Source: an uncultured virus (IMG/VR IMGVR_UViG_3300042485_000220) (taxonomy: Duplodnaviria > Heunggongvirae > Uroviricota > Caudoviricetes > Crassvirales). From it: 64,000 nucleotides of DNA. The position numbers and the translations under genes were made by a program. The notes beneath the pieces were generated by a model that worked only from the letters and a program-made list of their open reading frames with translations, was not told the DNA's origin and did not search any database. Positions 8,711-45,900 of this stretch are shown one piece after another. The stretch lies in the IMG/VR virus record IMGVR_UViG_3300042485_000220; one strand, given 5' to 3'. Numbering within the stretch: the first letter of the stretch is position 1; every line of letters starts with the position of its first letter.

Positions 8711-8731
8711 AACTAAAAAACACAAATTAAC

Positions 8732-10769
<2,038 letters not shown>

Positions 10770-25962: not shown

Positions 25963-26339
25963 TACAAGGCAATAGAAAAACAGATGGTTGGGCTATGTTC
26001 ATAGGAAGATGGCAACCATGGCACACTGGCCATAGATGGTTAATTGATCAACAACTAAACCAAGGTAAGAAGATATTGCTATGTGTAAGAGATGTTAAAG
26101 AGGATGAAAACAATCCTTGGTCTGCTTGGCAAATTATGATGAATTTATCAGAAGAGTTAATGGATCTTATAGAAGATAATAAAGTTAGAGTGATGATGAT
26201 TCCAGACATTGAGTCTGTTAACTTTGGACGTGGTGTAGGATATGATGTAATAGAACATGTACCTCCAGAAGATATAGCTGATATTTCTGCTACTAAGATA
26301 AGAGAACAAATGCGTAAGGATGAAGAAAGTATTTTATAA
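25947..26339 (+). CDS. HIGH-family nucleotidyltransferase (cytidyltransferase-like)
   Basis: FIGRWQPWHTGH, NP and ISATKIRE motifs. Confidence 0.8.
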   Translation: MQNILVQGNRKTDGWAMFIGRWQPWHTGHRWLIDQQLNQGKKILLCVRDVKEDENNPWSAWQIMMNLSEELMDLIEDNKVRVMMIPDIESVNFGRGVGYDVIEHVPPEDIADISATKIREQMRKDEESIL

Positions 26340-27622: not shown

Positions 27623-27623
27623 T

Positions 27624-28550
27624 ATGAAACCAGTTTGCTTAAACTTAGAAGAGTGTAATGGATTGGGTGACCTTATATGTGCCACCCCCACTATCAAGAA
27701 GTTACATGATGCCTATCAAAGAAAGATTACAGTTATTTCTAAGATGCCTGAGTTGTTTAAGAACAATCCACATGTAGAGAAGAGCTATAAAGCTAGCTCT
27801 ATGGACATGATGTACATACAAAGTAATTACATTGTACACAATTCATTCTATCTGGTAGGTAAGAAAGACGAGCGTGGTGTAGAGATGAAACATAACATGA
27901 TGGACATCAGACAGTTCCATGCTATACACCTAGGCTTTATGCTTGGAGAAGGTGAGTTGGAATGTTATTATAGACCAATAGAACCTAAGAAGAATTTTAT
28001 ACATGAGAAGTATGCTGTGATACATCCTGTTAACAGCTGGCCCAACAGAACTTGGTCACAAGATAACTGGTTAAACTTGTGTGAAGAGTTAATCAAATGG
28101 GGCTACACTGTAGTGGCTGTGGGTAAGGATAGCAGTGAGACAGGCTTCTTTAATGTACAGAAACCTGTACATGAGATGGGTAACAACATTATCAACTTAA
28201 TGAATCAAACGTCTATCTCTGAGACCTGGCACTTAATCAACGATGCTGCAGTTGTAATTACAATGGACTCTGGTATCCTGCATTTAGCAGGTACAACTAG
28301 TACAGATATTGTTGAATTAGGATCTCCTATTAATCCAGAGTTTAGAAGACCACGTAGAAAAGAAGGTAAACATATATACGTAAGAGGAGGATGTGGATTA
28401 CATTGTTCATCTAACATGAAGTATGCTCTTGAGTATTGGGACACTATAGACTCTGTACAACCATTGATAGGCTGCCTAGAGAAGAAAGAAACATTTGAAT
28501 GTCATCCATCTGTAGCACAAGTGATTCATGCAATTAACAATAACATATGA
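27624..28550 (+). CDS. Glycosyltransferase family 9 (heptosyltransferase-like)
   Basis: GLGDLICATP, IHP...NRTW and DSGILHLAG motifs; Cys-rich C-terminus. Confidence 0.85.
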   Translation: MKPVCLNLEECNGLGDLICATPTIKKLHDAYQRKITVISKMPELFKNNPHVEKSYKASSMDMMYIQSNYIVHNSFYLVGKKDERGVEMKHNMMDIRQFHAIHLGFMLGEGELECYYRPIEPKKNFIHEKYAVIHPVNSWPNRTWSQDNWLNLCEELIKWGYTVVAVGKDSSETGFFNVQKPVHEMGNNIINLMNQTSISETWHLINDAAVVITMDSGILHLAGTTSTDIVELGSPINPEFRRPRRKEGKHIYVRGGCGLHCSSNMKYALEYWDTIDSVQPLIGCLEKKETFECHPSVAQVIHAINNNI

Positions 28551-31210
28551 AAAAACTATTAATAATCACTCCTCACCTTTCGACAGGAGGAGCACCACAA
28601 GTAACAGTTAATAAAGTAGAGTTACTAAGAGATCACTTTGAAATCAAGGTGATAGAACATGCGTTCCTAGCATGGCAGTTTGTTGTGCAAAGAAACAAGA
28701 TCATTGACATGCTTGGTGAAGGAGTTAACTTCCATTCATTAGGAGATAATAAATACAATGAACTTGTTAAAATCTGTGAAGACTTTCAACCAGATATCAT
28801 ATCAATGGAAGAGTTTCCAGAGATGTTTATGAACAAAGAATGTGCTGACTATTTATATGATGCAGAAAGACCATGGAAGGTTGTAGAAACTACACATGAT
28901 AGTTCATTCAATCCTAAAAACAAATACTATCTGCCTGACAAGTTTATATTTGTCAGCTCTTATAACTCATTCCAATACATTACATTAAATGTACCTACAG
29001 AAGTAATTGAGTATCCTATAGATAAGAAGGTTAGAAACAAAATTGAAAGACAAGAAGAGTATGGCTTAGATCCTGAGTACAAACACTTTGTCACTGTAGG
29101 ATTATTTACACCTAGAAAGAATCAAGCATATGCATTCCAACTAGCAGAAAGATTGAAGAACCACAAGGTTAAGTTTCATTTCTTAGGTAACCAAGCTGGT
29201 AACTTTGCTAACTATTGGCAACCATTGATGGCTAACAAACCAGACAACTGTGTTGTGTGGGGAGAGCGTAATGATGTAAGTGAATTCTTAGAAGCATGCG
29301 ATGTGTTCTTCTTCCCATCTAAAGGTGACAGAGGTAACAAGGAGTTAAATCCTATTGCTATCAAAGAAGCTATGGAATATGATGACTTGATCAAAGTGAT
29401 GTACAACCTAGATGTATATTGTAATAAGTACAACGATGCTGAGAATATGGTTTATTTAACTGGAGATATTGGTAGTGATGCTGCCAATATTGTAAAAGTT
29501 TTAAACTTAGATGTACTAGATGAGGAGTGTATCATCTTGGGTACCTATCCAAACATTAAGGACAGAGCACAGTGGACCAAGGATACAATCAATAGTCTAA
29601 AGCCATTGGGTAGAAAAATCATATTGTTGTCTCACTATCCTGTAGACCAGGAGATACAACGTATGGTGGATTACTATATCTATGATAAGCATAATCCTTT
29701 GACTCATCATAGTTACTATACTAGATTCTACAATGACAGACCAGACTACTTTGCTGAGATCAACATCAATGGATTAAAGCACAGCAACCAGTCTTTGACT
29801 GTATTAACTAATATGTTTAATGGTGCTAAGGTTGCCAAAGAGTTAGGATTCAAGAGATTCTTCTACACTACATACGATGTTGTGTTAGATCCTAAAGACA
29901 TACCTGCAGTGAATGAAGCATTCAAGACAGATAAGAAGTTATATGCTGCTACACTTCCTACACCACAGGGTAAGGGAATTCAGACTAATGGTATTGTGTT
30001 TGACACAGAGTTTTTCTTAAAAGAATTTGATGATGTGCGTACACCAGAAGAATGGAACGAAGTGTGTAAGAGAAGAAGGTGTGAGAACTATCTAGAAGAC
30101 TATTTGTCAAAGGTTATCTTTAGCTTCAATCCTAATGATGTGCAAGTGATTACTAATGACAAACATACGTTCTTGATTAACAGTGGATTAGGTGTTGCAT
30201 CTAATAGTGAGTATTATTCTATCATCCCTGTTGTTGGAAAACCAAACACTTATGTGTTCTATTTCTTTACATATAATAGAGACCATAGAAACATTTATGT
30301 ATCTATTGCAGATTACATGTGGAAGAGAATCATACCAGCTAAGAACCATGAACTTGTTTATCAGTTTGAATTCAAAGGAGAACCTATTGATGTGAGAATG
30401 GATTTCTATGATGGAGATGTGTGCTACAAGATAGAAGAGTTTAAACTAACTAAGGATAACTTACAGATGTACGAAAACACAGGTAAGTTTGAATGGAAGA
30501 AAAAGGACAGACCAAAGATCAAATTAGTTCACATACAAACTACATTAAATGATGAAAGAGAACAAGCAAGTAGAGCATCCCTTGAAAGAGTCAAAGACCA
30601 TGGGTGGGAATATATCCTACACACTAACGAGCCCTATAGATCTTTACCACCAGCTCACAACTGTATGCGACCACTATGCGTTTCAATGGAACTCTTCAAT
30701 GAACAGCAAGTTCAAGAGTATGGCACTGCACTTACCCCAGCACATTATGGATGCTACGAAGCGTTCAAGAATGCCATCTTAATGGAGTTCCATGACTGTG
30801 ACTATCTGATTGTATGTGAAGGGGATTGTATCATTGAGACAGACATACACTTTTTCGTACAAAAAGTTGAGGAATGTGCACACTTATTGGGACCAAACAA
30901 CATAGACATTATGTCTTTTGGAGACAAAGATACATTAGAACATGGCTGGCCTCAGTCTCCTGTAAGGAAAGAAGTGAATGAAACAATGTACGTCACTGAT
31001 CATATCATTGGTTTACAATGTATTATGTTCCCTATTAACACTGCTCCATGGTTAAAAGATGTGCTTAGAAAGCACAAGTGGGATGCAGCTGATATATACT
31101 TTAACAATATCTTTATGGGACATCCTATGGGTATTGTACATAACAGACTTACTACCCAAGCAGATGGTTTCTCCTTAATTGATAACACACATAAAACATT
31201 TAGAAAATGA
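28547..31210 (+). CDS. Multidomain glycosyltransferase (GT4 + central domain + GT25-like)
   Basis: HLSTGGAP, VGLFTPRKNQ and FPS...ELNPIAIKEA; C-terminal GCYEAF..A...IVCEGDC. Confidence 0.8.
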   Translation: MKKLLIITPHLSTGGAPQVTVNKVELLRDHFEIKVIEHAFLAWQFVVQRNKIIDMLGEGVNFHSLGDNKYNELVKICEDFQPDIISMEEFPEMFMNKECADYLYDAERPWKVVETTHDSSFNPKNKYYLPDKFIFVSSYNSFQYITLNVPTEVIEYPIDKKVRNKIERQEEYGLDPEYKHFVTVGLFTPRKNQAYAFQLAERLKNHKVKFHFLGNQAGNFANYWQPLMANKPDNCVVWGERNDVSEFLEACDVFFFPSKGDRGNKELNPIAIKEAMEYDDLIKVMYNLDVYCNKYNDAENMVYLTGDIGSDAANIVKVLNLDVLDEECIILGTYPNIKDRAQWTKDTINSLKPLGRKIILLSHYPVDQEIQRMVDYYIYDKHNPLTHHSYYTRFYNDRPDYFAEININGLKHSNQSLTVLTNMFNGAKVAKELGFKRFFYTTYDVVLDPKDIPAVNEAFKTDKKLYAATLPTPQGKGIQTNGIVFDTEFFLKEFDDVRTPEEWNEVCKRRRCENYLEDYLSKVIFSFNPNDVQVITNDKHTFLINSGLGVASNSEYYSIIPVVGKPNTYVFYFFTYNRDHRNIYVSIADYMWKRIIPAKNHELVYQFEFKGEPIDVRMDFYDGDVCYKIEEFKLTKDNLQMYENTGKFEWKKKDRPKIKLVHIQTTLNDEREQASRASLERVKDHGWEYILHTNEPYRSLPPAHNCMRPLCVSMELFNEQQVQEYGTALTPAHYGCYEAFKNAILMEFHDCDYLIVCEGDCIIETDIHFFVQKVEECAHLLGPNNIDIMSFGDKDTLEHGWPQSPVRKEVNETMYVTDHIIGLQCIMFPINTAPWLKDVLRKHKWDAADIYFNNIFMGHPMGIVHNRLTTQADGFSLIDNTHKTFRK

Positions 31211-32220
31211 GAGTAGTACACGTAGCTACAGGACTAATTACCATACCACCAAATGGATGGGGTGCTGTAGAAAGACTTATATGGGAATACAAACAAGGAC
31301 TTGAGAAACTAGGAGATACTGTAGAGATCAAATACATGAATGAGTTAGAGAAGTGGCCTGATACAATTGTACATGCACACCTTGCTAACCAGGCTATCCA
31401 CTGTAGAGACAAAGGTATACCTTATGTATACTCTCTACATGATCATCATACAGAATGGTATGGTAAAGATAGTTGGGTGTTTAAGCAAAACCTAGAGGCT
31501 ATGAAAGGATCTATTGTATCTTTCACGCATGCTGAATATCTAATAGACTATTTTAATGAGACTGATAAGTTGTTCTATCTAAGACATGGGGCTAACACAG
31601 AATTCTTTAGTCACGATCCTGCTCCTAGACCACATGCATTATTGATGATAGCTAACAATGGATTAGCAGGTGACTCAGGCTTTGATAGAAAAGGATTTAG
31701 ATATGGTATCGAAGCAGCTAGAGAGTTAGGACTTCCTATTACAATAGCTGGTCATCCTAATAATGAGAAGTTCTTTGAGGTGCATAAAGATCTATTAGAG
31801 TATGAGAAGTTAACTTTAAAGTTAACAAATCCTACAGATGAAGAGACTAGAGAACTGTATCAAACACACACTATATTCTTACATCCATCTATGCTAGAAG
31901 CAGGACATCCCAACCTTACATTATGTGAAGCAGCTAGTGCATGTCTTCCTATTGTAGGAACGTATAGAGGAGCAAGACACTTCCCTGGTATGTGGGTGTT
32001 GCCTTCTATCAGTGTAAAAGAAGTGACCAGAGGCATTGTAGAAACAATTAATACGTATGAACATAGAAGACAAGAGATGATAGCTGTACGTGATTTCTAT
32101 AGTTGGGATCTTGTAGCTAAGACATTACATAAATACTATGAGAATGTATTGAAGATCAATGAAGGATATACATCAGACAGAACAAAACAATTATACATAA
32201 ACGCATACAATAACTTATGA
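31207..32220 (+). CDS. Glycosyltransferase family 4
   Basis: IPPNGWGAVE, RKG and HPSMLEAGHPNLTLCEA..CLP motifs. Confidence 0.85.
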   Translation: MRVVHVATGLITIPPNGWGAVERLIWEYKQGLEKLGDTVEIKYMNELEKWPDTIVHAHLANQAIHCRDKGIPYVYSLHDHHTEWYGKDSWVFKQNLEAMKGSIVSFTHAEYLIDYFNETDKLFYLRHGANTEFFSHDPAPRPHALLMIANNGLAGDSGFDRKGFRYGIEAARELGLPITIAGHPNNEKFFEVHKDLLEYEKLTLKLTNPTDEETRELYQTHTIFLHPSMLEAGHPNLTLCEAASACLPIVGTYRGARHFPGMWVLPSISVKEVTRGIVETINTYEHRRQEMIAVRDFYSWDLVAKTLHKYYENVLKINEGYTSDRTKQLYINAYNNL

Positions 32221-32795
32221 GAGTAGAAATGTTATCAATAGCAGACTTCTATAACAACCCAGATGAGGTGAGAGCTTTTGCTTTGAGTCAAGAATTTAGT
32301 GAGACAGGTAACTATCCTGGTAAAAGAACTATCCCTTTCTTTAATGACAGCATCAAAGAAACTATACAGAATGTAATCAGACCTTTTGCAGGTGAAGTAA
32401 CTTGGTGGGGAGATATTAATTCTGGAGCTTTCCAATACACAACATCAGCAGATAGATCTTGGATACATAGTGATGGCACAACACATTGGGCTGGTGTATG
32501 TTATCTTACTCCTGACGCTCCTTTGTCTGCAGGCACAGGTATCTTTAGACATAAGCCTACAGGTCTTAAGAATTGGATATATGAAGAACACACTGATGAA
32601 GAAAACAAAGAAATGCATCTCAAAGTAGATAATCTAGATATCACTAAATGGGATATGGTAGATAGAATTGGTAATGTATATAATAGATTAATTATGTACA
32701 GAGGTGATTTATTTCACGTATCTTTGGACTACTTTGGTAGAGGTCTAGAAGATGGTAGACTATTTCAAACATTCTTTTTTAACACAGAGAAATGA
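32217..32795 (+). CDS. DUF6445-like 2OG-Fe(II) oxygenase-fold protein
   Basis: DFYNNPD.VR, YPGKRT, WIHSD, YL.P...GT, YNRL..Y...FH and RL.Q.FF motifs. Confidence 0.7.
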   Translation: MRVEMLSIADFYNNPDEVRAFALSQEFSETGNYPGKRTIPFFNDSIKETIQNVIRPFAGEVTWWGDINSGAFQYTTSADRSWIHSDGTTHWAGVCYLTPDAPLSAGTGIFRHKPTGLKNWIYEEHTDEENKEMHLKVDNLDITKWDMVDRIGNVYNRLIMYRGDLFHVSLDYFGRGLEDGRLFQTFFFNTEK

Positions 32796-33853
32796 TAAAT
32801 TATAAATTACAACATGTAAATGGTTTGTTCTTTGAACTATTAAGTGACGATGGTAAGAACAGAGAATACGATGTAACTTTTGTAGATAGAAAAGATAACA
32901 AGATTATCTATAATATAAAACTAAAACCAGGAACTTGGGTGAGACTTAACAGAAAGTACTTATCTGATATAGCTGTGTTTGTTAGATATGAAGGACGTGT
33001 AGTGAAGCAGATAAATCTATTAGATGAACTAAAAGACAAAAGAGTCTTTATAGTATTTGAATCTAAAAGTCTTGGTGATAGCATAGCTTGGATACCATAC
33101 TGTTTAGAGTTTCAAGAGAAATATAAGTGTAAGGTGATTGTATCTACATTTAAAAATGATCTGTTTGAATCTGTGTATCCTGAGTTAGAGTTTGTAGGCA
33201 GAGGTGTAACAGTAGATAACATCCAAGCCATGGTAGAATTTGGTTGGTTTTGGGATGAACATAAAGAACCTACACATCCTGCAACCATCCCATTGCAACA
33301 AGCAGCTAGTAATATATTAGCACTAGAATACGAAGAGATACATCCACGCATTGCTTTTGATCGAGGAGAAAGACCTGTAGTTGATAAGTATGTTTGTATA
33401 TCTACACGTTCTACAGCACAATGTAAACATTGGTACTATTGGAAAGAGTTAATAGAAGCATTAAAAACAAAAGGATATAGAGTGTTTGAGCTGTCACAGG
33501 AAGCAGATGACTTAGGTGCAGAAACATTAGAAGATAAATCATTACAGAACGCAATGCGTTACTTGTATCACGCAGATCATTACATTGGTCTTTCTAGTGG
33601 TATCAGCTGGTTAAACTGGGCTGTAGGTAAACATACTATAATGATCTCTAACTTTACAGAAGCTGGTCATGAGTTTATATCTAACTGCACACGTATAATT
33701 AATCCTAATGTATGTAACAGCTGTTGGAATAATCCTCTGTTTAAGTTTAACAAAGGTGATTGGAACTGGTGTCCTGAGCATGAAGATACTCCTAGACATT
33801 TTGAATGTCACAAATCAATAAAAGTAGAATCAATTTTAAACCTAATAAAATAA
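32792..33853 (+). CDS. Aah/TibC-like protein O-heptosyltransferase (GT9 fold)
   Basis: SKSLGDSIAW.PY...F..K, ST.QCK.W, IGLSSG.SWL.WA.G, ISNFT...EF and VCNSCWN...WCP.H...FEC.KSI. Confidence 0.75.
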   Translation: MINYKLQHVNGLFFELLSDDGKNREYDVTFVDRKDNKIIYNIKLKPGTWVRLNRKYLSDIAVFVRYEGRVVKQINLLDELKDKRVFIVFESKSLGDSIAWIPYCLEFQEKYKCKVIVSTFKNDLFESVYPELEFVGRGVTVDNIQAMVEFGWFWDEHKEPTHPATIPLQQAASNILALEYEEIHPRIAFDRGERPVVDKYVCISTRSTAQCKHWYYWKELIEALKTKGYRVFELSQEADDLGAETLEDKSLQNAMRYLYHADHYIGLSSGISWLNWAVGKHTIMISNFTEAGHEFISNCTRIINPNVCNSCWNNPLFKFNKGDWNWCPEHEDTPRHFECHKSIKVESILNLIK

Positions 33854-33858
33854 ATCAT

Positions 33859-34506
33859 ATGCAGTTAAACGTCTTTGAACTATTTCCTACCCCTGTTTTA
33901 AAGTTTAACATTGGTAGAAACTTTACAAAAGAAGAAATAGATCATATTGTTAAAAAAGAGGCAGAAGTAGCACAACCTCCATTTCTATTGTTTATTGGAA
34001 ACAATACCACTGTTAATAAAAAAATACTTGAACATCCAGAAATGATTCATTTAAAAGCAATAGTTGAATCATGTTTGAAAGAATGGTGTGATAAAGTTTA
34101 TAATCCTATGTATGGAGATAAGTTTAGACTAAAAATAACTCAATCATGGCTTAACTATACCAAGCCTGGAGAACAACATAAACTACACTATCATCCAAAC
34201 AGTATAGTTAGTGGAGTAATTTATATAAGTGCTAATATTGAAAATGATATGATTAATTTTTTAAGTGACAGAAAAATGACATCATTTATTGAACCACTTG
34301 GTTTAAATAAATTTAACTCAGTAAGTATTAGTATACACGTAAATCAAGGAGATATTATTTTATTTCCATCTGATTTAAGTCACAGTGTTCCTGTAAATAA
34401 TGAAGACTATACAAGAGTTAGCTTAGCATTTAATTCATACTTTGAAGGAATACTAGGTGATTCAGATGATGACCCAAACTATATTGAAATTAAACTCGCA
34501 CAATAA
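33859..34506 (+). CDS. 2OG-Fe(II) oxygenase (TIGR02466-like)
   Basis: LFPTPV, QSWLN, H..HYHPNS.VSGV.Y, FPS.L.H.V and RVSLAFN motifs. Confidence 0.8.
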   Translation: MQLNVFELFPTPVLKFNIGRNFTKEEIDHIVKKEAEVAQPPFLLFIGNNTTVNKKILEHPEMIHLKAIVESCLKEWCDKVYNPMYGDKFRLKITQSWLNYTKPGEQHKLHYHPNSIVSGVIYISANIENDMINFLSDRKMTSFIEPLGLNKFNSVSISIHVNQGDIILFPSDLSHSVPVNNEDYTRVSLAFNSYFEGILGDSDDDPNYIEIKLAQ

Positions 34507-34517
34507 AATTAAAACAT

Positions 34518-35120
34518 ATGCAAAACGCAATAATATTTCCCCCTAAGTTAGTTGATATTCAAAACTATTATTATTTTAAAGAAGGTTTTTCTAAAGAAGA
34601 GCTAGATAAAATATATGCAGACGTTGCATTTCTTCCATTCAAAGCAGGAGAAACAGGAGCTTCTAATGAATACAATGATCTTACAGTTAGATCTTCTCAA
34701 ATCAAATGGATATATCCTTCCCAACAATGGGATTGGTTATATGATAAGTTGATGAATATGATTATGGAAGCCAATGATAATCTTTGGAATTTCAATTTGA
34801 CTGGAGTATTGGACGCTGTACAATATACAGAGTATCATGCCACTGAGAATGGGCATTATGGATGGCACCAAGACTTTGGGCCAGGTATGTTATCAACGAG
34901 AAAAATATCTGTAACAGTTCAGTTATCAGATCCTTCAGAATATGAAGGTGGTGATCTTGAATATTTTATAGGAGGAGATCCTAATAATGCATTAAAGGTG
35001 CAAAGAGATAAAGGATTGGTGTTTATCTTTCCATCATTTATGATGCATAGAGTGACACCTGTTACAAAAGGTATTAGAAGATCTTTTGTATTATGGGTAG
35101 GAGGAGAACACTACAAGTAG
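34518..35120 (+). CDS. 2OG-Fe(II) oxygenase (prolyl-hydroxylase/PKHD-like)
   Basis: QYTEY...GHYGWHQD, RKIS, YEGGDL and FPSF..HRVTPVTKG.RRS.V.W motifs. Confidence 0.85.
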   Translation: MQNAIIFPPKLVDIQNYYYFKEGFSKEELDKIYADVAFLPFKAGETGASNEYNDLTVRSSQIKWIYPSQQWDWLYDKLMNMIMEANDNLWNFNLTGVLDAVQYTEYHATENGHYGWHQDFGPGMLSTRKISVTVQLSDPSEYEGGDLEYFIGGDPNNALKVQRDKGLVFIFPSFMMHRVTPVTKGIRRSFVLWVGGEHYK

Positions 35121-36413
35121 TTATTTGTAGTGTTCTTCTTTTATTTTTAATTTAGCATCTAGTTCTTGAATGGCTTTCATCAATACACCCATTGTAGAAT
35201 TATAGTCCATCTTATCATGTGTCTTTGTAGATAGTTCTTCAGGAGTATCTTCTGCTATAAATCCAATTCTTGTTGAGTCTTCTTGACCATCAAGTTCATA
35301 ATTGTATGTAACAATTTCAGTAGAGTCTATGATGTCTAAAGCAGAAGCTACAAAAGGTTGAATGTTTTTTTTCATTTCCTTTGTAGAAGGATTAAAGAAA
35401 TATACAGAACCTATAGAAGTAAATGTATACCATCCTGGACCATAGCCAGTGAATCTTGGAGAAGGTCCAACTAAACCTCTAGTTGGTCCACAATAAAATC
35501 TATAGTTACAATACCATTCTCCTGTACTAACACTATTAAATGTTGCTGAAGCACTGACATTAAGATTTTGGTTATTACTATTTGCTGGTCCCTGAGGTCC
35601 TGTTGGACCTGTAGCTCCTGGAGCACCTGTTCCACCTGGACCACCTGCAGGACCAGTTGCACCTTGTGGTCCTTGAAATCCTTGTGGACCTTGTGGACCA
35701 GTACCTCCTGCAGGACCAGTACCACCTGTAGGACCATTTACACCTGATGATCCTGTTGCACCTTGTGGACCTGTACCACCTGGTGCACCAGTAGGACCAG
35801 TGCCTCCATTAACACCACTCACTCCAGAAGAACCAGAGGTTCCACCTGTTCCTGTGCTAGCTGAGCTTCCTGATGTGCCACTAGAACCAGACGTACCAGC
35901 TGTAGCTGAACTACCTGAAGTTCCACTAGAGCCTGAAGTTCCACTCTCAGCAGATGTACCAGAGCTTGCACTTGTGCCTGCAGTGGCTGATGTTCCACTT
36001 TCTGCAGATGTTCCTGCTGTACCACTTGTTCCTGTTGGTTGTGATTCTCCAGAAGTAGCTGATGAACCAGAAGTTCCTGTTGTTCCAGAAGTACCTGAGC
36101 TATCACTTTCTCCTGCTGTACCAGCTGTAGCAGCTGTGCCAGATGTACCAGCAGTACCAGAAGAATCTGAAATACTTGATGTACCTGCTGTACCAGCAGT
36201 TCCATTATATCCAGTTAAAGATACTGTCCAAGTATTATAAGTACCAGACCCTTTAAAATCTAAAGGGGTAATTACTAATGCACCAGTGCCAGAGTTATAA
36301 GATACAACTCTACCCACTATGTAATTGTCAGCATCATGGCTTACTTGGATGAAGTCATTGACAACAAAGGCAAGTCCTGTACTGACAGCGAATGTCATAT
36401 TAGAGTATGGCAT
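35121..36413 (-). CDS. Collagen-like fibre A with C-terminal S74 intramolecular chaperone
   Basis: Shared N-terminal domain, GTS repeats, GPT/GPQ collagen and STKEMK...IGFIAED...MKAIQEL. Confidence 0.8.
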   Translation of the reverse strand: MPYSNMTFAVSTGLAFVVNDFIQVSHDADNYIVGRVVSYNSGTGALVITPLDFKGSGTYNTWTVSLTGYNGTAGTAGTSSISDSSGTAGTSGTAATAGTAGESDSSGTSGTTGTSGSSATSGESQPTGTSGTAGTSAESGTSATAGTSASSGTSAESGTSGSSGTSGSSATAGTSGSSGTSGSSASTGTGGTSGSSGVSGVNGGTGPTGAPGGTGPQGATGSSGVNGPTGGTGPAGGTGPQGPQGFQGPQGATGPAGGPGGTGAPGATGPTGPQGPANSNNQNLNVSASATFNSVSTGEWYCNYRFYCGPTRGLVGPSPRFTGYGPGWYTFTSIGSVYFFNPSTKEMKKNIQPFVASALDIIDSTEIVTYNYELDGQEDSTRIGFIAEDTPEELSTKTHDKMDYNSTMGVLMKAIQELDAKLKIKEEHYK

Positions 36414-36420
36414 AGTTTAT

Positions 36421-36783
36421 TTATTGTTGTTGCTCCCAAAAAGGTTTTACAATTTTTGCAATTGCTGGATTAATTTTTTCATCAAGTCTTTTTTCTATGA
36501 TGTTTGCTTTGAGCCAATCAATGTTTCTTTGTTTTCTGTTTTCAATTTCATAAACCCAATTCTGAATTATTTCAGGAGTTAGTTCATTGGCTGGGATAAA
36601 TGGAACAGTGCCATCTAATTTAATAGTGGTTGTTTGAGGATGGTCATACACATGTGTATTTCCATTAGCATCAACTGTTGTTCCAATTAAAGACCAGTTT
36701 ACTTTTTCAATGACATTATCTAACCCATTTATATGTGGGATTAAATGCCAGTCAGAAACTTTAAAAGTATAGTTAACGATCAT
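36421..36783 (-). CDS. Small fibre-associated (assembly-like) protein
   Basis: Lies between fibre genes; FIP..ELT.E.I..WV and a C-terminal PFW motif. Confidence 0.55.
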   Translation of the reverse strand: MIVNYTFKVSDWHLIPHINGLDNVIEKVNWSLIGTTVDANGNTHVYDHPQTTTIKLDGTVPFIPANELTPEIIQNWVYEIENRKQRNIDWLKANIIEKRLDEKINPAIAKIVKPFWEQQQ

Positions 36784-36794
36784 AATGTAATGTT

Positions 36795-38078
36795 TTATAA
36801 ATTATCAATTCTAGTGTTAAGTTCTTGTACTGCTTTAAGTAAAAGACCAAGAGCATTTGCTGTGTCTAGTTTATCTTGTGTTTCAGTAGACAATTCTACA
36901 GGAGCATCTTCAGCAATAAATCCTACTTTTGTATGTTCATAGTCAATATAATTAAAAGAAACTATATCAACATCTTTTATAATCTCCACAGCACAAGGAG
37001 CATAAGCTTGAATGTTTGTTTTATATATTCTTGAAGATGTACCAAAGAAGTTTGTAGATCCACATGCTAGTTGAGTTTGCCAGTTTCCATACCCAAACCA
37101 TGGACCTCCATCATTTTGAGTGTTTTTCATACCAGTACCAAATGCTATAGCAAAGTCAGAACCTGTATACACTTCTCCTCCAGTTGCTATATTAGAAAAA
37201 CTTACATCACTGTTTGTATTTAATCCTTGATTATATATTGTCTGTGGACCTTGTCCTCCTGGAGGACCTGTAGGTCCTGTATTACCTGTTGGTCCTGTTG
37301 GACCTTGTGGACCACCACCCCCTTGAGGACCAGTGCCACCTTGTGGGCCTCTTGGACCTTGTGCCCCTGTTGGACCTGGTGCACCAGTAGGACCTTGTGC
37401 ACCACTTGTTCCACCAGCACCTGTAGGACCTTGTGCTCCTATTGGACCCTGTGCACCCTGTGGTCCAGTTGCTCCATTTGCTCCTGATTTACCACTTGAT
37501 CCTGAAGAACCACTTGCTCCTGATTTACCACTAGAACCTGCTGTTCCACTATTTCCACTAGTTCCAGAATTACCACTGTTTCCAGACCCACCTGATTTAC
37601 CACTAGATGCAGCAGCTCCAGAAGAACCAGACTTACCACTGTTTCCTGATTTACCATTTTCTCCTCCCTTTCCAGAAGAACCTGCTTGACCATGTGTACC
37701 TGCAGTTCCTGCAGTTCCTGCAGTGCCTGATGTAGCAGCAGTACCAGCAGATCCAGACTTACCAGCTTTACCAGAACTACCAGATTGACCAGGAGCTCCA
37801 TCTTTACCAGAGCTTCCACTCTTTCCAGCTTTTCCAGAAGAGCCAGCAGATCCTGCTGTACCTGAGGAACCTACAACACCAGTTAAACTAACAGTCCATG
37901 TACTAAATGTACCAGTACCTCTTGATAAAGTTGGAGCAATTACTAATACTCCTGTGCCTTTATCATATGATACAACAGTACCAATGACATAGTTATCAAC
38001 ATCATGGCTAAGTTGTACATTATCTCCAGGGAGATATGCTAGTCCAGGATTTATATTAAAAGTCATATTAGATGGCAT
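36795..38078 (-). CDS. Collagen-like fibre B (Lys-rich GKS repeats) with S74 chaperone
   Basis: GKA/GKS/GNS triplets, GPQ/GPT collagen and SSRIYK...VGFIAED...LKAVQEL. Confidence 0.8.
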   Translation of the reverse strand: MPSNMTFNINPGLAYLPGDNVQLSHDVDNYVIGTVVSYDKGTGVLVIAPTLSRGTGTFSTWTVSLTGVVGSSGTAGSAGSSGKAGKSGSSGKDGAPGQSGSSGKAGKSGSAGTAATSGTAGTAGTAGTHGQAGSSGKGGENGKSGNSGKSGSSGAAASSGKSGGSGNSGNSGTSGNSGTAGSSGKSGASGSSGSSGKSGANGATGPQGAQGPIGAQGPTGAGGTSGAQGPTGAPGPTGAQGPRGPQGGTGPQGGGGPQGPTGPTGNTGPTGPPGGQGPQTIYNQGLNTNSDVSFSNIATGGEVYTGSDFAIAFGTGMKNTQNDGGPWFGYGNWQTQLACGSTNFFGTSSRIYKTNIQAYAPCAVEIIKDVDIVSFNYIDYEHTKVGFIAEDAPVELSTETQDKLDTANALGLLLKAVQELNTRIDNL

Positions 38079-39381
38079 TGTTCTTCTTGTTTTCTAGGTT
38101 GGTTATTCTTTTATCTATCTCTTGAACAGACTTCATAACTAATCCAATTACACTCACTGTATCCATTCTATCATGATCATTGCCAGATAGAATAGTTGGA
38201 GTATCTTCTGCTATGAAACCTATCCTTGTATCTTCATCATTTTGTTCCACTTCATAGTTGTATGAAACTATATCCACTTCATTTAAAATATCAACTGCTG
38301 AAGGAGCAAATGGTTGAATGTTTTCTTTTGCATCTCTAGATGAAGTATTAAAAAAACTTGCAGCACCTAACGCACCATTAGTCCACCAAGCATCACTACG
38401 TCCAAGCCAAGGCACACCTTGATTAGCACTAGAATACAATCCTTGAAAACCAGGAACCTTCATGAAGTTTGATGTATAAATGTTTGCAGGAGTTGCAACA
38501 GGACCAAATGTAGGATAACTATATGTATACAAACCTTGGTTATATGAAGCAGATGTACCTGTTGGTCCTTGTCCTCCTTGACCACCTGTTGGTCCTTGAG
38601 GTCCTGGAGGGCCAGTTGGACCTTGTGGTCCTGGTGCACCTATTGGACCTGTTCCTCCTGGTGCCCCTGTTGGGCCTGTACCACCTTGAGGTCCTGTACC
38701 ACCATTTACACCTGATGGACCTTTACCACCTTGTGCACCTTGAGGTCCTTGAGGACCTGTTGGTCCTTGTGGTCCAGTTGCTCCATTTGATCCAGAAGTT
38801 CCACTTACTCCACTAGCACCAGAGTTTCCAGAACTGCCAGAGTTTCCAGAACTGCCACTAGTACCTATTGCACCAGTTGTACCAGAAGAACCAGTACTTC
38901 CTGATGTACCATTTGTACCTGAACTTGCAGAAGATCCATCTGATCCTGCTGTTCCTGCTGTTCCAGCTGTACCAGAAGAGGCTGAAGTTCCTGAGGAACC
39001 ACTGTCTCCACTTGTAGCAGAAGAACCTGCATCACCAGAACTACCAGAAGTAGCAGAGCTACCATCTGTTCCTGTTGTTGCTGCAGTACCTGCTGTACCA
39101 GAAGTACCAGAGGACCCATCAGTACCTGTTGTTCCTGATGTACCAGATGAACCAGAAGTTCCAGCTGAACCATTGAATCCTGTTAAGGAAACGTTCCAGC
39201 TGCTGTAAGTACCACTACCTACAACTTCATAAGGTTCAACAACCAATGCACCAGTGGAAGGATTGTAAGATACAACCCTTCCTGTGATATAGTTATTCCC
39301 ATCATGAGCAACTTTGACAAAGTCATTAGTTTTGAACTCTTTATTCAGGGAAATATTAAAAGTTAAATTACTGTAAGGCAT
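38068..39381 (-). CDS. Collagen-like fibre C with S74 chaperone
   Basis: GTS/GTD triplets, collagen and SSRDAK...IGFIAED...MKSVQEI. Confidence 0.8.
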   Translation of the reverse strand: MPYSNLTFNISLNKEFKTNDFVKVAHDGNNYITGRVVSYNPSTGALVVEPYEVVGSGTYSSWNVSLTGFNGSAGTSGSSGTSGTTGTDGSSGTSGTAGTAATTGTDGSSATSGSSGDAGSSATSGDSGSSGTSASSGTAGTAGTAGSDGSSASSGTNGTSGSTGSSGTTGAIGTSGSSGNSGSSGNSGASGVSGTSGSNGATGPQGPTGPQGPQGAQGGKGPSGVNGGTGPQGGTGPTGAPGGTGPIGAPGPQGPTGPPGPQGPTGGQGGQGPTGTSASYNQGLYTYSYPTFGPVATPANIYTSNFMKVPGFQGLYSSANQGVPWLGRSDAWWTNGALGAASFFNTSSRDAKENIQPFAPSAVDILNEVDIVSYNYEVEQNDEDTRIGFIAEDTPTILSGNDHDRMDTVSVIGLVMKSVQEIDKRITNLENKKNNAI

Positions 39382-39390: not shown

Positions 39391-42300
39391 TTAAGCAGGA
39401 GGTAAGGTTTCTGTTGTTCCACTTGTTCCTGAATACACTGTTGTTTCACCTGATGTTGCTGCAGTTCCAGAAGATGCTGCAGTTCCAGAAGTACCAGATG
39501 TTCCAGCTGTACCACTTGAACCAGAGCTTGCAGAAGTACCAGAAGATGCACTTGTACCTGATGATCCACTAGTTCCAGATGAACCAGAGGTTCCACTAGT
39601 TCCAGAGCTACCATCAGTACCTGAAGTTGCGTCTCTACCACTTGTACCTGCAGATGCACTTGTTCCAGCAGTTCCAGAAGATCCACTTACACCAATAATA
39701 TTAAAGTAAAATACATCATTAACATCTGGATCAGGACCTGCAGAAGCAATCTGTGAAACATTGTATTGCTCATAACCAGCCTCAAATGGAGCAGTAGATG
39801 TAATTAATAATATTTTATATGTATTCTTGTCATCATTCTTAACAATCTTGATTACAGTGTTAGGTTGTAAGTAGTCAAGATATGCTGAGAAGTTAATTGC
39901 TGGGTCATAAGATACGTTGTCAATAGCAATACTTGTTGTAGTTGTACCCCAAGTCAAGCCACTGCTTAGAGCAAAGAAACCACTGCCTGGATCTGTTCCT
40001 GTGTTTGTAGAACTTGATAATCTCCAAGTAGATAAGTTACCATCCAAGCCTTGTAAACCAGAAGTACCTGAGGTACCATCACCTCCAGCAGCACCACCTA
40101 AGTTTACTTGCCATGCTGTATATGTACCAGAACCAGAAGTAGCAGTTACATCTACAGACATAGCACCTGTGCCAGCATTGTAAGATATAATATCACCACC
40201 CATGCTATTACTACCATCAAAAGCAATAACAACTACCTGACCTACAGTATATGCAAGTCCTGTATCAACAGTAAGATTTTTTGTACCAGTTCCTATTGCT
40301 AAACTACTACTAGATGTTGTTTTATATAAGTCTCCAGAAAGACCTGCTGTACCAGAAGAGCCACTTGTTCCAGAAAGACCAGAGGTTCCAGCAGAAGCAC
40401 TTGTACCTGAAGTACCTGAACTTCCATCAGTACCTGAAGAACCATCTGTACCACTTGAACCATTTGTTCCACTTGAGCCTGAAGTTCCATTAGAACCATC
40501 AGTACCACTTGTTCCACTTGTTCCAGCAGTACCTGATGAACCATCAGTTCCTGTTGTACCACTTGTTCCAGATGAGCCATCTGTACCACTAGTGCCTGAA
40601 GAACCATCTGTGCCAGATGAACCATCTGTTCCAGAAGATCCACTAGATCCACTTGTCGCACTTGTACCACTTGTACCTGTAGTGCCACTTGTACCTGAGC
40701 TACCATCTGTTCCACTAGATCCATCAGTACCACTTGATCCATCTGTACCAGTAGTTCCAGAAGTACCTGTTGTACCTGAGGTGCCTGTTGTACCAGAAGA
40801 ACCAGAAGTGCCAGAGCTAGCTGATGTACCTGAACTTGCTGATGTACCACTTGAGCCATCAGTTCCAGAAGTACCATCTATTCCAGAGGTGCCACTGCTT
40901 CCATCTGTACCAGCTGTTCCTGAGCTACCATCTGTTCCAGAAGAACCTGATGATGCAGAAGATCCAGAGGTTCCACTTGATCCAGAAGTACCAGAAGAGC
41001 CATCAGTTCCTGAGCTTCCATCAGTACCAGTTGTACCTGATGTACCAGCAGTAGCTGATGTGCCACTTGATCCAGAAGATGCTGAAGTTCCACTTGATCC
41101 AGATGTAGCACTTGTACCTGCAGTTCCACTAGAACCATCTGTTCCAGCAGTAGCTGAAGTTCCAGAAGAGCCAGAAGTACCAGCTGTACCATCTGCAGCA
41201 CTTGTACCAGAAGATCCAGATGTTCCTGCAGTACCTGAAGTACCACTCACTGCTACACCAATTTGTTTAGCGTAAACAATAACTGATGGAGCAAAAGGAG
41301 AATCATATGGATTGCCAGGAGCCACTGTTGCTGGGATAGCCTTAAGTCTAACTGTTGTATCAGAAGAAGCAAATACCCATTCTACATAATCACCTGCATT
41401 TAAGTCTAAGAAATATCCTACATATGGAAGTTGTTCTTCTTCTTGACCATTTAATTCTAAAGAAGATTTACTATTAGGTTCATCTACACCATTTACTCTT
41501 AGCCATATAAATACTGTAGCTAAACCAGGAGTTTGTTTGTCAATCTGTGCTGAGAACGCAAACTCATATTGTCCAGGGTATGCCACTTCAAGTCTTGTAC
41601 CTGAAACTAATGTAATACCATATGCTAAATCTGTAAAAGTATAAGACCAAACTGTTGGTGTGTTCGCAGCAATTACATCTTGTGTAGTTGCTGAATGCCA
41701 TTGACCATACCAGTTAGCAATTGCTGCTCCAGTAGAACCATCTTTACCAGATGTTCCACTAGTTCCTACAGTACCAGAAGATGCTGATGTACCACTGCTT
41801 CCACTTGTTCCAGTTGTACCACTCGTTCCAGTTGTACCTGTTGTACCACTTGTTCCAGCAGAACCTGATGTACCAGTAGAACCAGAGGTTCCTGCTGTTG
41901 CAGAACTACCAGAACTACCAGAACTTCCTGATGTACCTGCAGTTGCAGATGTTCCAGAAGATCCATCAGTTCCAGAACTACCATTTGTACCAGAGCTACC
42001 AGAAGATGCTGACGTACCTGAAGACCCAGAAGTACCAACTGAACCTGAGGTTCCAGCACTACCACTAGTACCACTTGATCCATCACCACCTGCTGCTCCA
42101 GCTAGGTTTACTGTCCATACTGAGTATGTTCCAGAACCAACAACATCTGTAGGAGCTAAAAATGTTAAAACACCTGTTGAAGGATTATAAGAACTAATTT
42201 CAGAAGTTTGAAAGTTATTTGGATCATATGCTATTAAAACATTCTGTGCTGTTGTATAAGCTAAACCTAGTCCAACAACAATAGATCCTGCACTACCTAA

Positions 42301-42834
42301 TGTAAACGTGCTACTAGATATTGTTGCATATCTATCACCTGAGATACCAGAGGAACCTGAACTACCTGAAGAACCAGAAGTTGCAGAAGATCCTGAGCTA
42401 CCAGATGAACCTGATGAACCAGAACTGCCACCAGTACCACTAGTTGCAGCTGTACCAGAAGTACCTGCTTTACCACTAGATCCAGAACTTCCAGAAGAAC
42501 CTGAAGTGCCTGATGAACCATTGTTACCAGACGAACCTGAGGTACCATTTGTACCAGATGTTCCTGTTTTACCAGAGGTACCAGAAGAACCTGTTAATCC
42601 TGATGTACCAGAAGACCCAGAGACACCACTAGATCCATTAGTACCAGATGCACCACTGGTACCAGAAGTACCATATAGTCCTGAGCCACAGATGGCATCA
42701 TTAAGTTTTTCAATTATGGTTTCAAGATTGTCATTGGTATTAATACCAGAGCATATTAGATTAGGACCTTCATAGAATACGCAGGTCGAATCCAATATTA
42801 CAGGACAAGTTTGTGCTGAGCAAGTAACGTTCAT
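39391..42834 (-). CDS. Long Gly-Ser/Thr-repeat fibre with Cys-rich N-terminus and C1q/BclA-like domain
   Basis: CVFYEGPNL.C head, several (GTS/GSS/GTD)n blocks, two copies of the fibre N-domain, and a PGQYEFAFSAQI..IWLRVNG..LNAGDYVE domain. Confidence 0.75.
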   Translation of the reverse strand: MNVTCSAQTCPVILDSTCVFYEGPNLICSGINTNDNLETIIEKLNDAICGSGLYGTSGTSGASGTNGSSGVSGSSGTSGLTGSSGTSGKTGTSGTNGTSGSSGNNGSSGTSGSSGSSGSSGKAGTSGTAATSGTGGSSGSSGSSGSSGSSATSGSSGSSGSSGISGDRYATISSSTFTLGSAGSIVVGLGLAYTTAQNVLIAYDPNNFQTSEISSYNPSTGVLTFLAPTDVVGSGTYSVWTVNLAGAAGGDGSSGTSGSAGTSGSVGTSGSSGTSASSGSSGTNGSSGTDGSSGTSATAGTSGSSGSSGSSATAGTSGSTGTSGSAGTSGTTGTTGTSGTTGTSGSSGTSASSGTVGTSGTSGKDGSTGAAIANWYGQWHSATTQDVIAANTPTVWSYTFTDLAYGITLVSGTRLEVAYPGQYEFAFSAQIDKQTPGLATVFIWLRVNGVDEPNSKSSLELNGQEEEQLPYVGYFLDLNAGDYVEWVFASSDTTVRLKAIPATVAPGNPYDSPFAPSVIVYAKQIGVAVSGTSGTAGTSGSSGTSAADGTAGTSGSSGTSATAGTDGSSGTAGTSATSGSSGTSASSGSSGTSATAGTSGTTGTDGSSGTDGSSGTSGSSGTSGSSASSGSSGTDGSSGTAGTDGSSGTSGIDGTSGTDGSSGTSASSGTSASSGTSGSSGTTGTSGTTGTSGTTGTDGSSGTDGSSGTDGSSGTSGTTGTSGTSATSGSSGSSGTDGSSGTDGSSGTSGTDGSSGTSGTTGTDGSSGTAGTSGTSGTDGSNGTSGSSGTNGSSGTDGSSGTDGSSGTSGTSASAGTSGLSGTSGSSGTAGLSGDLYKTTSSSSLAIGTGTKNLTVDTGLAYTVGQVVVIAFDGSNSMGGDIISYNAGTGAMSVDVTATSGSGTYTAWQVNLGGAAGGDGTSGTSGLQGLDGNLSTWRLSSSTNTGTDPGSGFFALSSGLTWGTTTTSIAIDNVSYDPAINFSAYLDYLQPNTVIKIVKNDDKNTYKILLITSTAPFEAGYEQYNVSQIASAGPDPDVNDVFYFNIIGVSGSSGTAGTSASAGTSGRDATSGTDGSSGTSGTSGSSGTSGSSGTSASSGTSASSGSSGTAGTSGTSGTAASSGTAATSGETTVYSGTSGTTETLPPA
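40340..41248 (-). repeat. Largest Gly-X-Y (GTS/GSS/GTD) coding repeat block
   Basis: About 900 bp of degenerate 9-nt periodic repeats. Confidence 0.85.
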
Positions 42835-42999: not shown

Positions 43000-45900
43000 C
43001 TATCTATTTTGTTTCTGTATAGTTATGTCAAACTCTGTAGCAAATTCAGGGCTAAAGATAGCTCCATAAGTTAAGAAAGATTTAGTTACAGGAGCTGCTT
43101 TCATTAAGTATTTAATAGGTCTTGCTTTCTTTCTAGCTTCTTCGTCTGTTGTGCTTGGATCAAAGTCCATGCCTGTTGTTTCTATAAAGAAGTGTCTTGT
43201 AAATTTAGTTACATCATCTAATAGACCAATTGCTGGGAAGATGCTACCACTAGCTAGCTTTTGTACCTCAGCAGGATTGTAGAAGAATGAAAGCTCACCT
43301 ACAAATCTATCAACTACCTTTTGACTATATCTATGGAAGTTTCTAGAAGCTCTATCTCCTTCATCATCATCTGGGGCCATTACACCAAGAGCAAGCATTG
43401 CTCCAAACAAAGATAACAAGATAGTTAATTCCTTAAGCTGGTTACGTAAGTTGTTTCTAACCATATCTATAAAGTCATCCTTAGACATAGTCATTTCTTC
43501 ACCAGTTCTTTTCTTGAACTCCTGAGCGTATTCAAAGAACATTCTATCAAGCTCTGCAATACCAGCATCGTTCATAGCAAGAATGTCCTTGATATAATTA
43601 CTACGTTCCATTATAGATCTTCCTAATACAGAACCTAGTAGACGAAGCCTACCAATATCATAACTTTCTCCTTCTATACCTTCTTCTCCAAACTCTACAG
43701 AGAAGTCATTTGATACCTTTCTAAATTCAGAGAAACGTGTATCAGCAAGTTTAGGAATCCATCTTTTAAATACCATCATACTAGCTGTCCAAATAGACAT
43801 GCCCATTCTGTTCATGTTTTCCTTACTAGTATTACCAGTTGCTGCTTCAGATAGACGTCTACTTAATAACCCCAGTCTTTGTAACTCTTTCTTGTTGCTT
43901 AGATCCAAACCAGGGATGACTAACTTGCCATCTTCCATCTTTGATGTAACAGCAATAGATTTGTCTTTCTTTAACTCCTCTATCTCCTTCTCTATCAAAG
44001 GTTTAGTTTCTCTATATTTAGCTTGACTAGAGTTACGATCTTTATATTTGTTTTTTACATATTTAGGAATACTCACAATCTTACCATCTACTACCATTGT
44101 GTTTTCTAATAATGTAAAGAAGGTTGCCTTTTCTGCATGTTGTTCAGGATACTTCATAAAGATCATCAACATGTCTCCTAGATTGTTCTGAGTTAATGTA
44201 GTTAAACCTGCTTTCTTAAATAGCTCATAAGAAGGGTCTTCTGAAAGAGGTAAGAATGTATTAAGTAGTTGAACAAACTTTTCTTTATCACCTACATTTT
44301 GTAATAAAAGCTTTGCTTCATTCTTAGCAAACTCTCTAGCTTTGAAGTATTCTCCTGCTTGGGCAGCCATCTGAATGTTTGTACCAAATGCATTGACAGC
44401 ACCTGATAAAAACTCAAGACCAAGAGTCTTTATTTGGAATCCTCTATTCATAGCATCCATGGTTTTAATCATAGATGTTGCTGATACTTCTTCATTTGGT
44501 TTAAATACTTCTCTTCCAGCTATAGAATTAACTACACCTTTCATACCATTTACCACCTTGCCAAAGTACAAAGGAGTGTCTGTATCAGATAGTACATACT
44601 TTTGTTCATAGAAGACAGCTCTTGTAAACTCATCTAAGGTCTTCATGTTTTCAGCATTACCTGTCATCACCTTAGGTTCACCATCATCATCCAATACAAT
44701 ATTACTCACTCTATCCACAGCAAGGTGAGCGTTCTTAAATTCTTCAATTGTACTTAAGAACTTAACTTGTTCTTCTACCTCTGTTAGATATTTGTATTTA
44801 TTAATCTGTTGGATGTACAAAATCATGTTCTTAAATAAGTCTTCACTCACCTCAGAATAATCATTTACACCATCTGTATTTGTAAAGTCATATGTATAAT
44901 ACTTAGGTATAGAGTTTTCCATCTTACCTGTAATCTCATCAAACTTACCATATCCTACATCATCAGGATTAATCTTTAAGCTTTGATAGAAGTTTTCCAT
45001 TACAGATAACTTACCATCCCAAACAAGACTCTCTGCCATTGTCTTTCTAACAAATGGTAAGAAGAAAGAAGATATAGAGTTTTGAATAAATCCTTCATCT
45101 TTAGCTTTTTTATTAGTCTTGCTAATAAAGTTATACAACGCAAATAGATCTGGATCATTCTTAATGTCCTTATACTCAGCTGATTCCCACTTACTTAAAG
45201 GATGGTTTTTAATGATGTAGTTGTTCCAACCATTAAAATCCTTTCTAGTTATATCATACTTACGACTCTCTTGAATAATTGCTTTCTCTCTTTTCTCTAC
45301 AATCTCTGGACTGTTACCAGGGAAGTCATCATTGATACGCTTAAGATTCTTTTCTAATACAGCATCAGCTTCTTTCTTATATGCTTCTATGTCAATGTTA
45401 TTTTTAAGCCAAGTTATATCTCCTCCTGCTGCAGCTTTGGCATCAACTTCACTACGAAACTTTTCATCATACTTGTAGATCAGTCTGTTTATCCATTGTC
45501 CCTTCTCATCCTTTTGATATACCTTCTTGATAGTTTGTCTGATATCACCACCTCTTTTAACAAACCTCTCTCTGATCTCCATTAGCTCTTTAATCTCTTC
45601 TAAGGAATCAGCATTAGCATTGCTTCTAGCTTGTCTATTTAATTTAGCAAGTACATTCAAAGATCTTTGTCCAAGGTCTTCTACACCTCTAAAGTTAGCA
45701 GCCAATCCTTTTGTAACAACCTCAGGCTTGGTTAATCCTGTTGTTAAGTTTCTTTGACCTATATGTTTATCTGCAAACTTAAAAGCAATGTCAATAAGCT
45801 CTTGCTTAGACTTGTAGATGTTCTTAGCTTCCTTTTCAAGGTTAGCTCTTAATTCTCTTAACTCAGTAAGTAACTTTTTATCTTCATCAGTCTTAGCGTC

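Follow-up and report, generated by a model that had tools for sequence, protein, structure and literature searches.

The A, B and C chains of C1q are encoded by three clustered paralogous genes, have equal collagen regions and a C-terminal non-collagenous domain, and assemble into a heterotrimer. Designed ABC heterotrimers of the Hartgerink type carry many axial charge pairs, in which Lys at the Y position of one Gly-X-Y triplet is matched with Asp at X of the next. A C-terminal intramolecular chaperone, Peptidase_S74 (S74), occurs in phage fibres and spikes such as the L-shaped fibre protein pb1 of T5, the K1F endosialidase and the appendages of GA-1 and phi29, which in the solved examples are single-gene homotrimers with beta-helical shafts. 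Here we analyse three neighbouring collagen-like fibre genes, A, B and C, at positions 35121-39381 of a 64,000-nucleotide stretch of DNA (the window) from an uncultured virus of the Crassvirales (IMG/VR record IMGVR_UViG_3300042485_000220). We propose, with a confidence that falls slightly short of even, that A, B and C may be the three chains of one heterotrimeric collagen-like fibre, with the chains selected by their terminal domains.

The trio resembles the S74 fibres and spikes in its match to PF13884 and in its Ser/Lys pair, and departs from them in having a collagen-like rod and a fixed set of three length-matched paralogs. Its likeness to C1q and to the animal heterotrimeric collagens (types I, IV and VIII) lies in clustered paralogs, equal rods and a C-terminal domain that could select chains. 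As in C1q, there are interruptions that fall at one level of the rod and differ by chain (insertions in B and A and, in the relative L026, Gly-less triplets in C). Unlike C1q, to which it is related only in the Gly-X-Y repeat, the trio carries a self-cleaving S74 domain rather than gC1q or a C-propeptide, and a heterotrimer is proposed here from indirect evidence. In having one basic and two acidic chains whose net charge is near zero, the trio recalls the designed ABC heterotrimers; the window differs from these in lacking axial pairs and in having four reverse contacts only, in which A takes no part. Protein Data Bank (PDB) matches to the rod include 2klw (PKG)10, 9llp/9llr and BclA. Like Scl1/2, BclA and the E. 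coli prophage collagens, the trio has Gly-X-Y rods without hydroxyproline codes, flanked by trimerising globular domains; those proteins are described as homotrimers (PMC8968730), and they are not known to occur as conserved length-matched trios.

Each fibre was identified from its open reading frame (ORF), from Pfam matches to Collagen and Peptidase_S74 and from a parse of its triplets. The genes of the block are:

38068-39381, minus strand: fibre C, first gene of the trio, 437 aa (N-domain 39178-39381; rod of 70 triplets 38545-39180; tip 38344-38544; S74 chaperone from Ser347, 38071-38343)
36795-38078, minus strand: fibre B, Lys-rich, 427 aa (N-domain 37878-38078; rod of 71 triplets 37236-37880; tip 37038-37235; S74 chaperone from Ser348, 36798-37037)
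36421-36783, minus strand: DUF7936 small ORF between B and A, 120 aa (Pfam PF25590, E 2.4e-9)
35121-36413, minus strand: fibre A, Glu/Asp-bearing, 430 aa (N-domain 36210-36413; rod of 70 triplets 35577-36212; tip 35388-35576; S74 chaperone from Ser343, 35124-35387)

The end of C and the start of B overlap by 11 nt, and the fibre genes sit among large structural ORFs. Pfam Collagen (PF01391) matches A, B and C with E values of 4.7e-15, 4.4e-24 and 1.9e-22, and Peptidase_S74 (PF13884) with 31.3, 23.0 and 35.9 bits (cut-off 22). The fibres also match phrog_5073, phrog_6320, phrog_366 and phrog_8745, all annotated 'tail fiber protein' (E 1e-14 to 1e-29), with matches driven mostly by the collagen part. 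We regard A, B and C as predicted members of these PHROG tail fibre families, and their attachment to the tail as putative. The three proteins align almost without gaps, B and C being 47-51% identical to A, and share one layout: an N-domain (67-68 aa), a Gly-X-Y rod, a tip of about 60 aa and the S74 chaperone. A first-pass annotation of this DNA had described three fibre paralogs with a single architecture, and ORFs, Pfam, alignment and triplet parse all bear this out. Counted from 'SLTG', where the N-domain ends, the triplets stay in frame throughout the rod, 70 in A, 71 in B and 70 in C; about 44 of them are Gly-Ser/Thr triplets and the following 26 or so are Gly-Pro triplets. Triplets without Gly number 12 in A, 2 in B and 5 in C, with Ala, Ser, Asp or Gln instead; all lie in the Gly-Ser/Thr block, and no index is shared between chains. 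This block has no Pro, and its stability may depend on modification by the adjoining oxygenase and glycosyltransferase genes.

Relatives were gathered from a scan of viral contigs (74 loci) and a scan of metagenome contigs with a tip-plus-chaperone alignment (64 loci). Three short fibre genes could be parsed at 25 loci, which represent 21 non-identical trios and 18 clusters at 95% identity. All relatives, numbered here by locus (L), are metagenome contigs, some of them short, and their repetitive rods are prone to assembly errors. At 25 of 25 loci with three parsed genes the order is C, B, a DUF7936-like ORF, A. Conservation of the three-gene set, which the first-pass annotation had put forward as a check, is thus what we find. 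The types are also recognisable throughout the relatives by the junction of rod and tip ('TSASYNQ' in C, 'PQT[IV]YNQ' in B, 'NSNNQ' or 'NTNGQ' in A) and by their C-terminal tails. In the chaperone-domain tree, the labels A, B and C need three changes (the minimum is two) compared with a mean of 10.4 after shuffling, and none of 200 shuffles was as low. Because the labels need so few changes, we conclude that the triplication is older than the divergence of these phages.

The lengths of the three rods, measured in residues from the last Gly of the N-domain to the YNQ/NNQ motif, change together. The combinations seen are:

C/B/A 212/215/212: window, L017/L079, L020, L075 and others
C/B/A 215/218/215: L088
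C/B/A 230/233/230: L080
C/B/A 188/190/187: L026
C/B/A 134/136/133-134: eleven distinct trios
C/B 137/139: L105 (A cut off)

Over the 18 trios the C rod takes five values (134, 188, 212, 215 and 230 residues), yet B exceeds C by two or three residues in 18 of 18 and A differs from C by 0 or -1 in 18 of 18. Even steps of one triplet are matched, in all three genes from 212/215/212 to 215/218/215 (L088) and in both visible genes from 134/136 to 137/139 (L105). The length changes fall within the Gly-Pro block, at different sites in each paralog. Internal landmarks of the rod (the start of Gly-Pro and a Ser-rich island), where they can be called, agree within 1-4 triplets between paralogs, by a heuristic too noisy to count. 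Gene conversion was considered as a source of the equal lengths and rejected: the best DNA identity between paralogs of the window is about 74% over 121 nt, with no long stretch, and the sites of insertion and deletion differ between paralogs. Given that there is no long identity in the window, recent gene conversion does not explain the match. Together, the matched lengths, differing indel sites and lack of long identity indicate several parallel changes of length in the three genes, some as small as one triplet. Three distinct chains of equal triplet number, as a heterotrimer calls for, are therefore found here (70/71/70), with constant offsets over five length classes.

The triplets that lack Gly tend to avoid one another. 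If their positions reflected paralog ancestry we would expect an excess of coincidences at the same level, and if the fibres were independent we would expect a random number. Across all 18 trios there are 24 coincidences, compared with 45.7 expected by random placement, and none of 5000 shuffles went that low; when each clade is represented by a single trio (10 trios), the count is 21, compared with 30.4 (P 0.021), these and the following permutation P values being too optimistic because related trios are treated as independent. To control for positional preference we compared real trios with re-paired trios, in which chains come from other phages of the same length class. Real trios again show fewer coincidences, both in the long class (8 versus 12.2, P 0.014) and in the 134 class (10 versus 20.0, 0 of 20000), and the deficit persists after thinning (9 versus 15.5, P 0.0008). 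It fits with three chains that share each level of one helix.

The charges of the rods also differ by chain. The rod of A has six acidic residues and no basic one (GES, AES and DSS, twice each), with the Asp of its two DSS triplets at the Gly position. The rod of B has 12 basic and two acidic residues (11 Lys at X, plus GPR, GKD and GEN), and that of C has five acidic and one basic (GTD twice, GSD, GDA, GDS and GGK). All charged triplets quoted in the first-pass annotation recur in our triplet parse. Charge sign is associated with chain in the window (chi-square p 3.7e-4) and in L120 (2.1e-3). The net charges of C, B and A in the window are -4, +10 and -6, which sum to 0, and the net rod charge per trio ranges from -2 to +4. 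When chains are swapped between phages of one length class, the sum of the absolute net charges rises from 7 to 25.3 in the long class (P 0.003) and from 30 to 40.3 in the 134 class (P 0.024). Across the 18 trios, the more basic residues the most basic chain has, the more acidic ones the other two tend to carry (Spearman 0.85, with ancestry uncorrected).

A basic chain arose in two clades, as B in the window clade and as A in the L120/L108 clade. In the first (window, L017, L020, L075, L078), B has 9-12 basic residues; it has 1-2 in L080 and L088, and a Lys-rich B occurs only in the window clade. In the second (L120, L108, L114, L104, L110), A carries 5-9 Arg, mostly at Y, and C carries 1-5 Glu/Asp at X. 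As a separate observation, Glu/Asp at X of triplet i in the C chains of this second clade is accompanied in A by Arg or His at Y of triplet i+1. The pairs fall at triplets 6/7, 9/10, 11/12 and 13/14; L120 has the last of these, and L108 lacks both of its residues. At zero register shift they are at odds with the contact geometry of our register test, described below.

The terminal domains offer a possible means of chain selection. All three chaperones have a Ser followed by a Lys five residues later: Ser343/Lys348 in A, Ser348/Lys353 in B and Ser347/Lys352 in C. This pair is invariant in 21 sequences and within each ortholog set (16 A-type, 17 B-type and 13 C-type sequences). The spacing is that of Ser1264/Lys1269 in T5 pb1, whose chaperone is a trimer released once folded (PMC4690869). 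In an AlphaFold2 monomer model of tip plus chaperone, the chaperone has a predicted local distance difference test (pLDDT) score of 71-85 and appears as a mixed alpha/beta fold with a long helix at its C-terminal end; the tip scores below 50 (residues 1-70), and no tip fold was obtained. By sequence, the PDB gave one match, to the chaperone part of the 439-aa putative tail fibre 8jov, and a literature search on 8JOV found nothing related. The model of the N-domain (81 sequences, pLDDT 76) is a five-strand beta-domain, for which Foldseek gave no PDB match with an E value of 0.001 or below. Its best matches, with E 0.1 and a template-modelling (TM) score of 0.58, are to the N-terminal beta-barrel of V/F-ATPase subunits; we take the likeness to be that of a generic small barrel.

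We infer that the coupling of the three proteins reflects one shared triple helix. The three genes would be expressed together from their tightly packed block. The S74 chaperones and tips would gather one chain of each type and set the register, and the helix would then zip toward the N-terminus, through the Gly-Pro block first and the Gly-Ser/Thr block next, until it is capped there by the three N-terminal beta-domains. Each chaperone would finally cleave itself at the conserved Ser, as in T5 pb1 and K1F endosialidase. With both ends of the rod fixed, every chain needs the same number of triplets, and a gene could gain or lose a triplet only if the other two did likewise. Triplets without Gly would do least harm at levels where the other two chains keep their Gly. 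The Lys-rich B and the acidic A and C would be a secondary, lineage-specific addition rather than a pairwise code for assembly, although overall electrostatic compensation would disfavour BBB, AAA and CCC. The trio might then be a natural ABC collagen outside animals, in which S74 acts like a procollagen C-propeptide that selects and registers the chains and is then removed, and in which defects and charges are spread over the chains and each level remains foldable; we judge this to have not quite an even chance of being correct. In natural collagens, chains are as a rule selected by a non-collagenous domain (PMC8968730).

Several observations weigh against a single ABC helix. The first-pass annotation had held that Lys-Asp/Glu pairs between chains specify the heterotrimer, and this did not survive a test of register. 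The rods were aligned by triplet index and Y-to-X contacts with the next chain were counted in all six chain orders, where a contact means the same or the next triplet, and one more for the trailing-to-leading pair; this is the contact geometry of the collagen-peptide literature. Over all six orders the window has no canonical pair of a basic residue at Y with an acidic one at X. Its best order gives four reverse contacts, each between an Asp at Y of C and a Lys at X of B (matched in 88 of 2000 shuffles). A makes no contact because its Glu residues are at X and its two Asp residues at the Gly position. The relatives examined are at chance, with two contacts each in L017 (559 of 2000 shuffles), L020 (295 of 2000) and L120 (1416 of 2000). 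Axial and lateral geometries of charge pairs both exist, and reverse lateral pairs, which the C-B contacts resemble, do form salt bridges in designed heterotrimers (10.1101/2024.05.21.595195). The charge pattern was also expected to be kept in relatives, and it is missing from most of them: rod charge is almost nil in L080, L088, L005, L036 and most trios of the 134 class, among others. As most trios are nearly without rod charge, charge is not a general selector of chains. Given the failed register test and a Lys-rich B found in the window clade only, the data do not support a pairwise charge code as what specifies the trimer.

Other points on the same side concern length, ancestry and the known behaviour of S74 proteins. 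In L118, a short contig and the one exception to the matched lengths, C falls short of B by four triplets. Two extra residues interrupt the B rod of the 134 and 188 classes, five triplets from its end; A has such an insertion only in some phages and C never has one; C of L026 has two Gly-less triplets at the level of the insertions in B and A. Since the insertion in B is unmatched, one shared helix would need a bulge or a local break. The permutation tests are uncorrected for shared ancestry. In the tip-plus-chaperone alignment, inspection by eye found no chain-specific complementary residues in the C-terminal helix of the chaperone. K1F endosialidase is reportedly a homotrimer. T5 pb1 is one as well (PMC4690869). 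A single ABC helix explains the matched length, the paralog number of three, the avoidance of defects and the compensation of charge, and must accept an unmatched insertion in B and a novel role for S74.

The same data can be read as three separate homotrimers, AAA, BBB and CCC, each with its own S74 chaperone and tip and probably with its own docking site through a type-specific N-domain, their length being held by a feature of the virion such as a fixed span or the need for equal reach. We consider this nearly as likely as the single ABC helix. Homotrimers are the known behaviour of S74 fibres (PMC4690869) and of prokaryotic collagen-like proteins (PMC8968730), and the two-residue insertion in B poses no problem for them. 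The junction motif, tip type and C-terminal tail are kept per type across lineages, as would be the case for separate receptor-binding fibres, and tips diverge faster than the rest of the protein between the window and L017 (tip identity 53% in C, 57% in B and 76% in A; whole B and C orthologs 87-88%). Shuffling of tips between paralog types, which would favour homotrimers, was looked for and rejected, tip identity being highest among orthologs (53-78%) and at most 41% across types, a weak comparison for segments of 60 residues. Gly-less triplets as such are compatible with a homotrimer, for the single-gene 1147-aa fibre upstream of the trio has them in 22 of 211 parsed triplets; an AAA rod, however, would lack any Gly at 12 of its first 44 levels. 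Counter to independent homotrimers, the four things they predict all fail: drift in triplet number, variable paralog number, random coincidence of defects and no charge compensation. They give no reason for matching to one triplet (0.86 nm in a flexible rod of 40-66 nm) in 18 of 18 trios, for a B rod that is two or three residues longer than C in every class, or for exactly three genes at 25 of 25 loci.

Alternatively, homotrimers could be packed side by side in a composite fibre or tied at both ends, with cationic BBB set against anionic AAA and CCC. This would account for the matched lengths, the near-zero net charge and the absence of canonical pairs within a helix, and it would keep the S74 domains homotrimeric. 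Charge pairs between helices are under study as drivers of bundling in collagen peptides (10.1101/2025.02.15.637692). No such bundle is known for phage fibres, however, and most relatives have hardly any rod charge to hold one together. Packing of this kind neither predicts that Gly-less triplets avoid the same level nor requires exactly three gene types, and we consider it quite improbable. What stands of the first-pass annotation is that the three chains belong together, as the conserved set, the lengths in 18 of 18 trios, the avoidance among Gly-less triplets and the charge compensation suggest; the charge-pair reason that it gave does not.

If the ABC heterotrimer is correct, it would be the first natural mixed collagen outside animals, the mixed form having been described so far only for animal collagens, and chain choice would be a new function of the S74 domain. 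The review PMC8968730 regards collagen-like proteins of prokaryotes and viruses as homotrimers, and our literature search gave no phage collagen heterotrimer among the matches listed. The trio would also provide a small recombinant system in which to study the composition and register of heterotrimers, with no hydroxyproline machinery known to be required. Selection of composition and register still limits collagen design (PMC8968730; 10.1101/2024.05.21.595195). Even if the fibres are separate, matching of length to single triplets across lineages would be an unexplained constraint on phage fibre architecture.

Beyond the metagenomes, no isolate in the phage collection carries the trio, and megablast gave no match there. 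A tblastn search of the same collection with fibre C returned chaperone-domain matches only, none of the 53 records covering 80% of the query. The N-domain alone matches three records in that collection, one Aphanizomenon phage and two uncultured phage records of 735 kb. The small DUF7936 protein is found in viruses only; its neighbours in the atlas are uncharacterised viral DUF7936 clusters, and a literature search on DUF7936 found no papers.

Two short contigs show unusual arrangements. L082 (1-3614 of a 3.6-kb metagenome contig) reads B, DUF7936, a gene that joins an A-type N-domain to a tip and tail of C type, and then a second B. Either a genuine duplication that includes a chimeric gene or an assembly error across repetitive rods would account for this. 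As evidence for more than three genes it was set aside, the same order also being expected from a mis-join inside the repetitive A and C rods, and we counted it neither way. In L118 (3.5-kb contig), B reads through into the DUF7936 small ORF, which represents either a fusion or a sequencing error.

In many relatives, one or two of the three fibres begin about 24 residues into the N-domain, without strand 1 and most of strand 2. The missing segment stands instead at the start of a different ORF (124-307 aa), which lies upstream in another reading frame. Loci with such a split are:

L017:10001-11861
L098:4463-6405 and 7838-9651
L005:7160-8544
L036:6113-8172
L123:397-3229

A group I intron was considered and rejected, there being no Rfam match in L098 or L017, as was insertion of a homing endonuclease, since none of five scanned upstream ORFs matches an endonuclease family. 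One of these five carries a Laminin_G_3 lectin-like domain. The N-domain is possibly divided over two polypeptides that would be rejoined by strand complementation.

Two neighbours flank the trio directly:

39391-42834, minus strand: 1147-aa collagen-like protein directly upstream of the trio (Pfam Collagen E 2.1e-66; domain hits by hidden Markov model)
34518-35120, plus strand: 2OG-Fe(II) oxygenase (PF13640, by Pfam), 200 aa, convergent with fibre A

The 1147-aa protein has a Cys-containing N-terminus and two internal copies of the fibre N-domain (residues 187-246 and 855-914) between collagen stretches, and it has no S74 domain. Its relatives have 1-5 internal beta-domains. It is probably a longer fibre of the same apparatus. 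The PF13640 gene lies directly after fibre A in eight of eight relatives tested, often on the same strand, and is a candidate collagen-modifying enzyme.

The oxygenase gene is part of a plus-strand block of candidate modification genes at 26320-35120, adjacent to the fibres, that encodes PF13640 and PF13759 2OG-Fe(II) oxygenases, DUF6445, two GT9 and two GT1 glycosyltransferases and a sulfotransferase; counterparts in relatives lie at L098:9677-11582 and L092:8922-10821. The gene content suggests hydroxylation together with glycosylation or sulfation of the Ser/Thr-rich rods. Upstream of the fibre block, on the minus strand, are giant ORFs at 43000-48234 (1744 aa) and 48249-60686 (4145 aa). 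Neither has a Pfam match, and the 1744-aa ORF, the only one scanned against PHROG, has no match there either. No tRNA genes were found in the window. A further collagen-like protein of 282 aa (20997-21845, minus strand; Pfam Collagen E 2.1e-9) is encoded away from the fibre block. Other genes of the window encode rIIA/rIIB-like proteins, RecA, an endolysin and a structural protein with a faint likeness to one of Cellulophaga phages, and the window looks like part of a large uncultured tailed phage.

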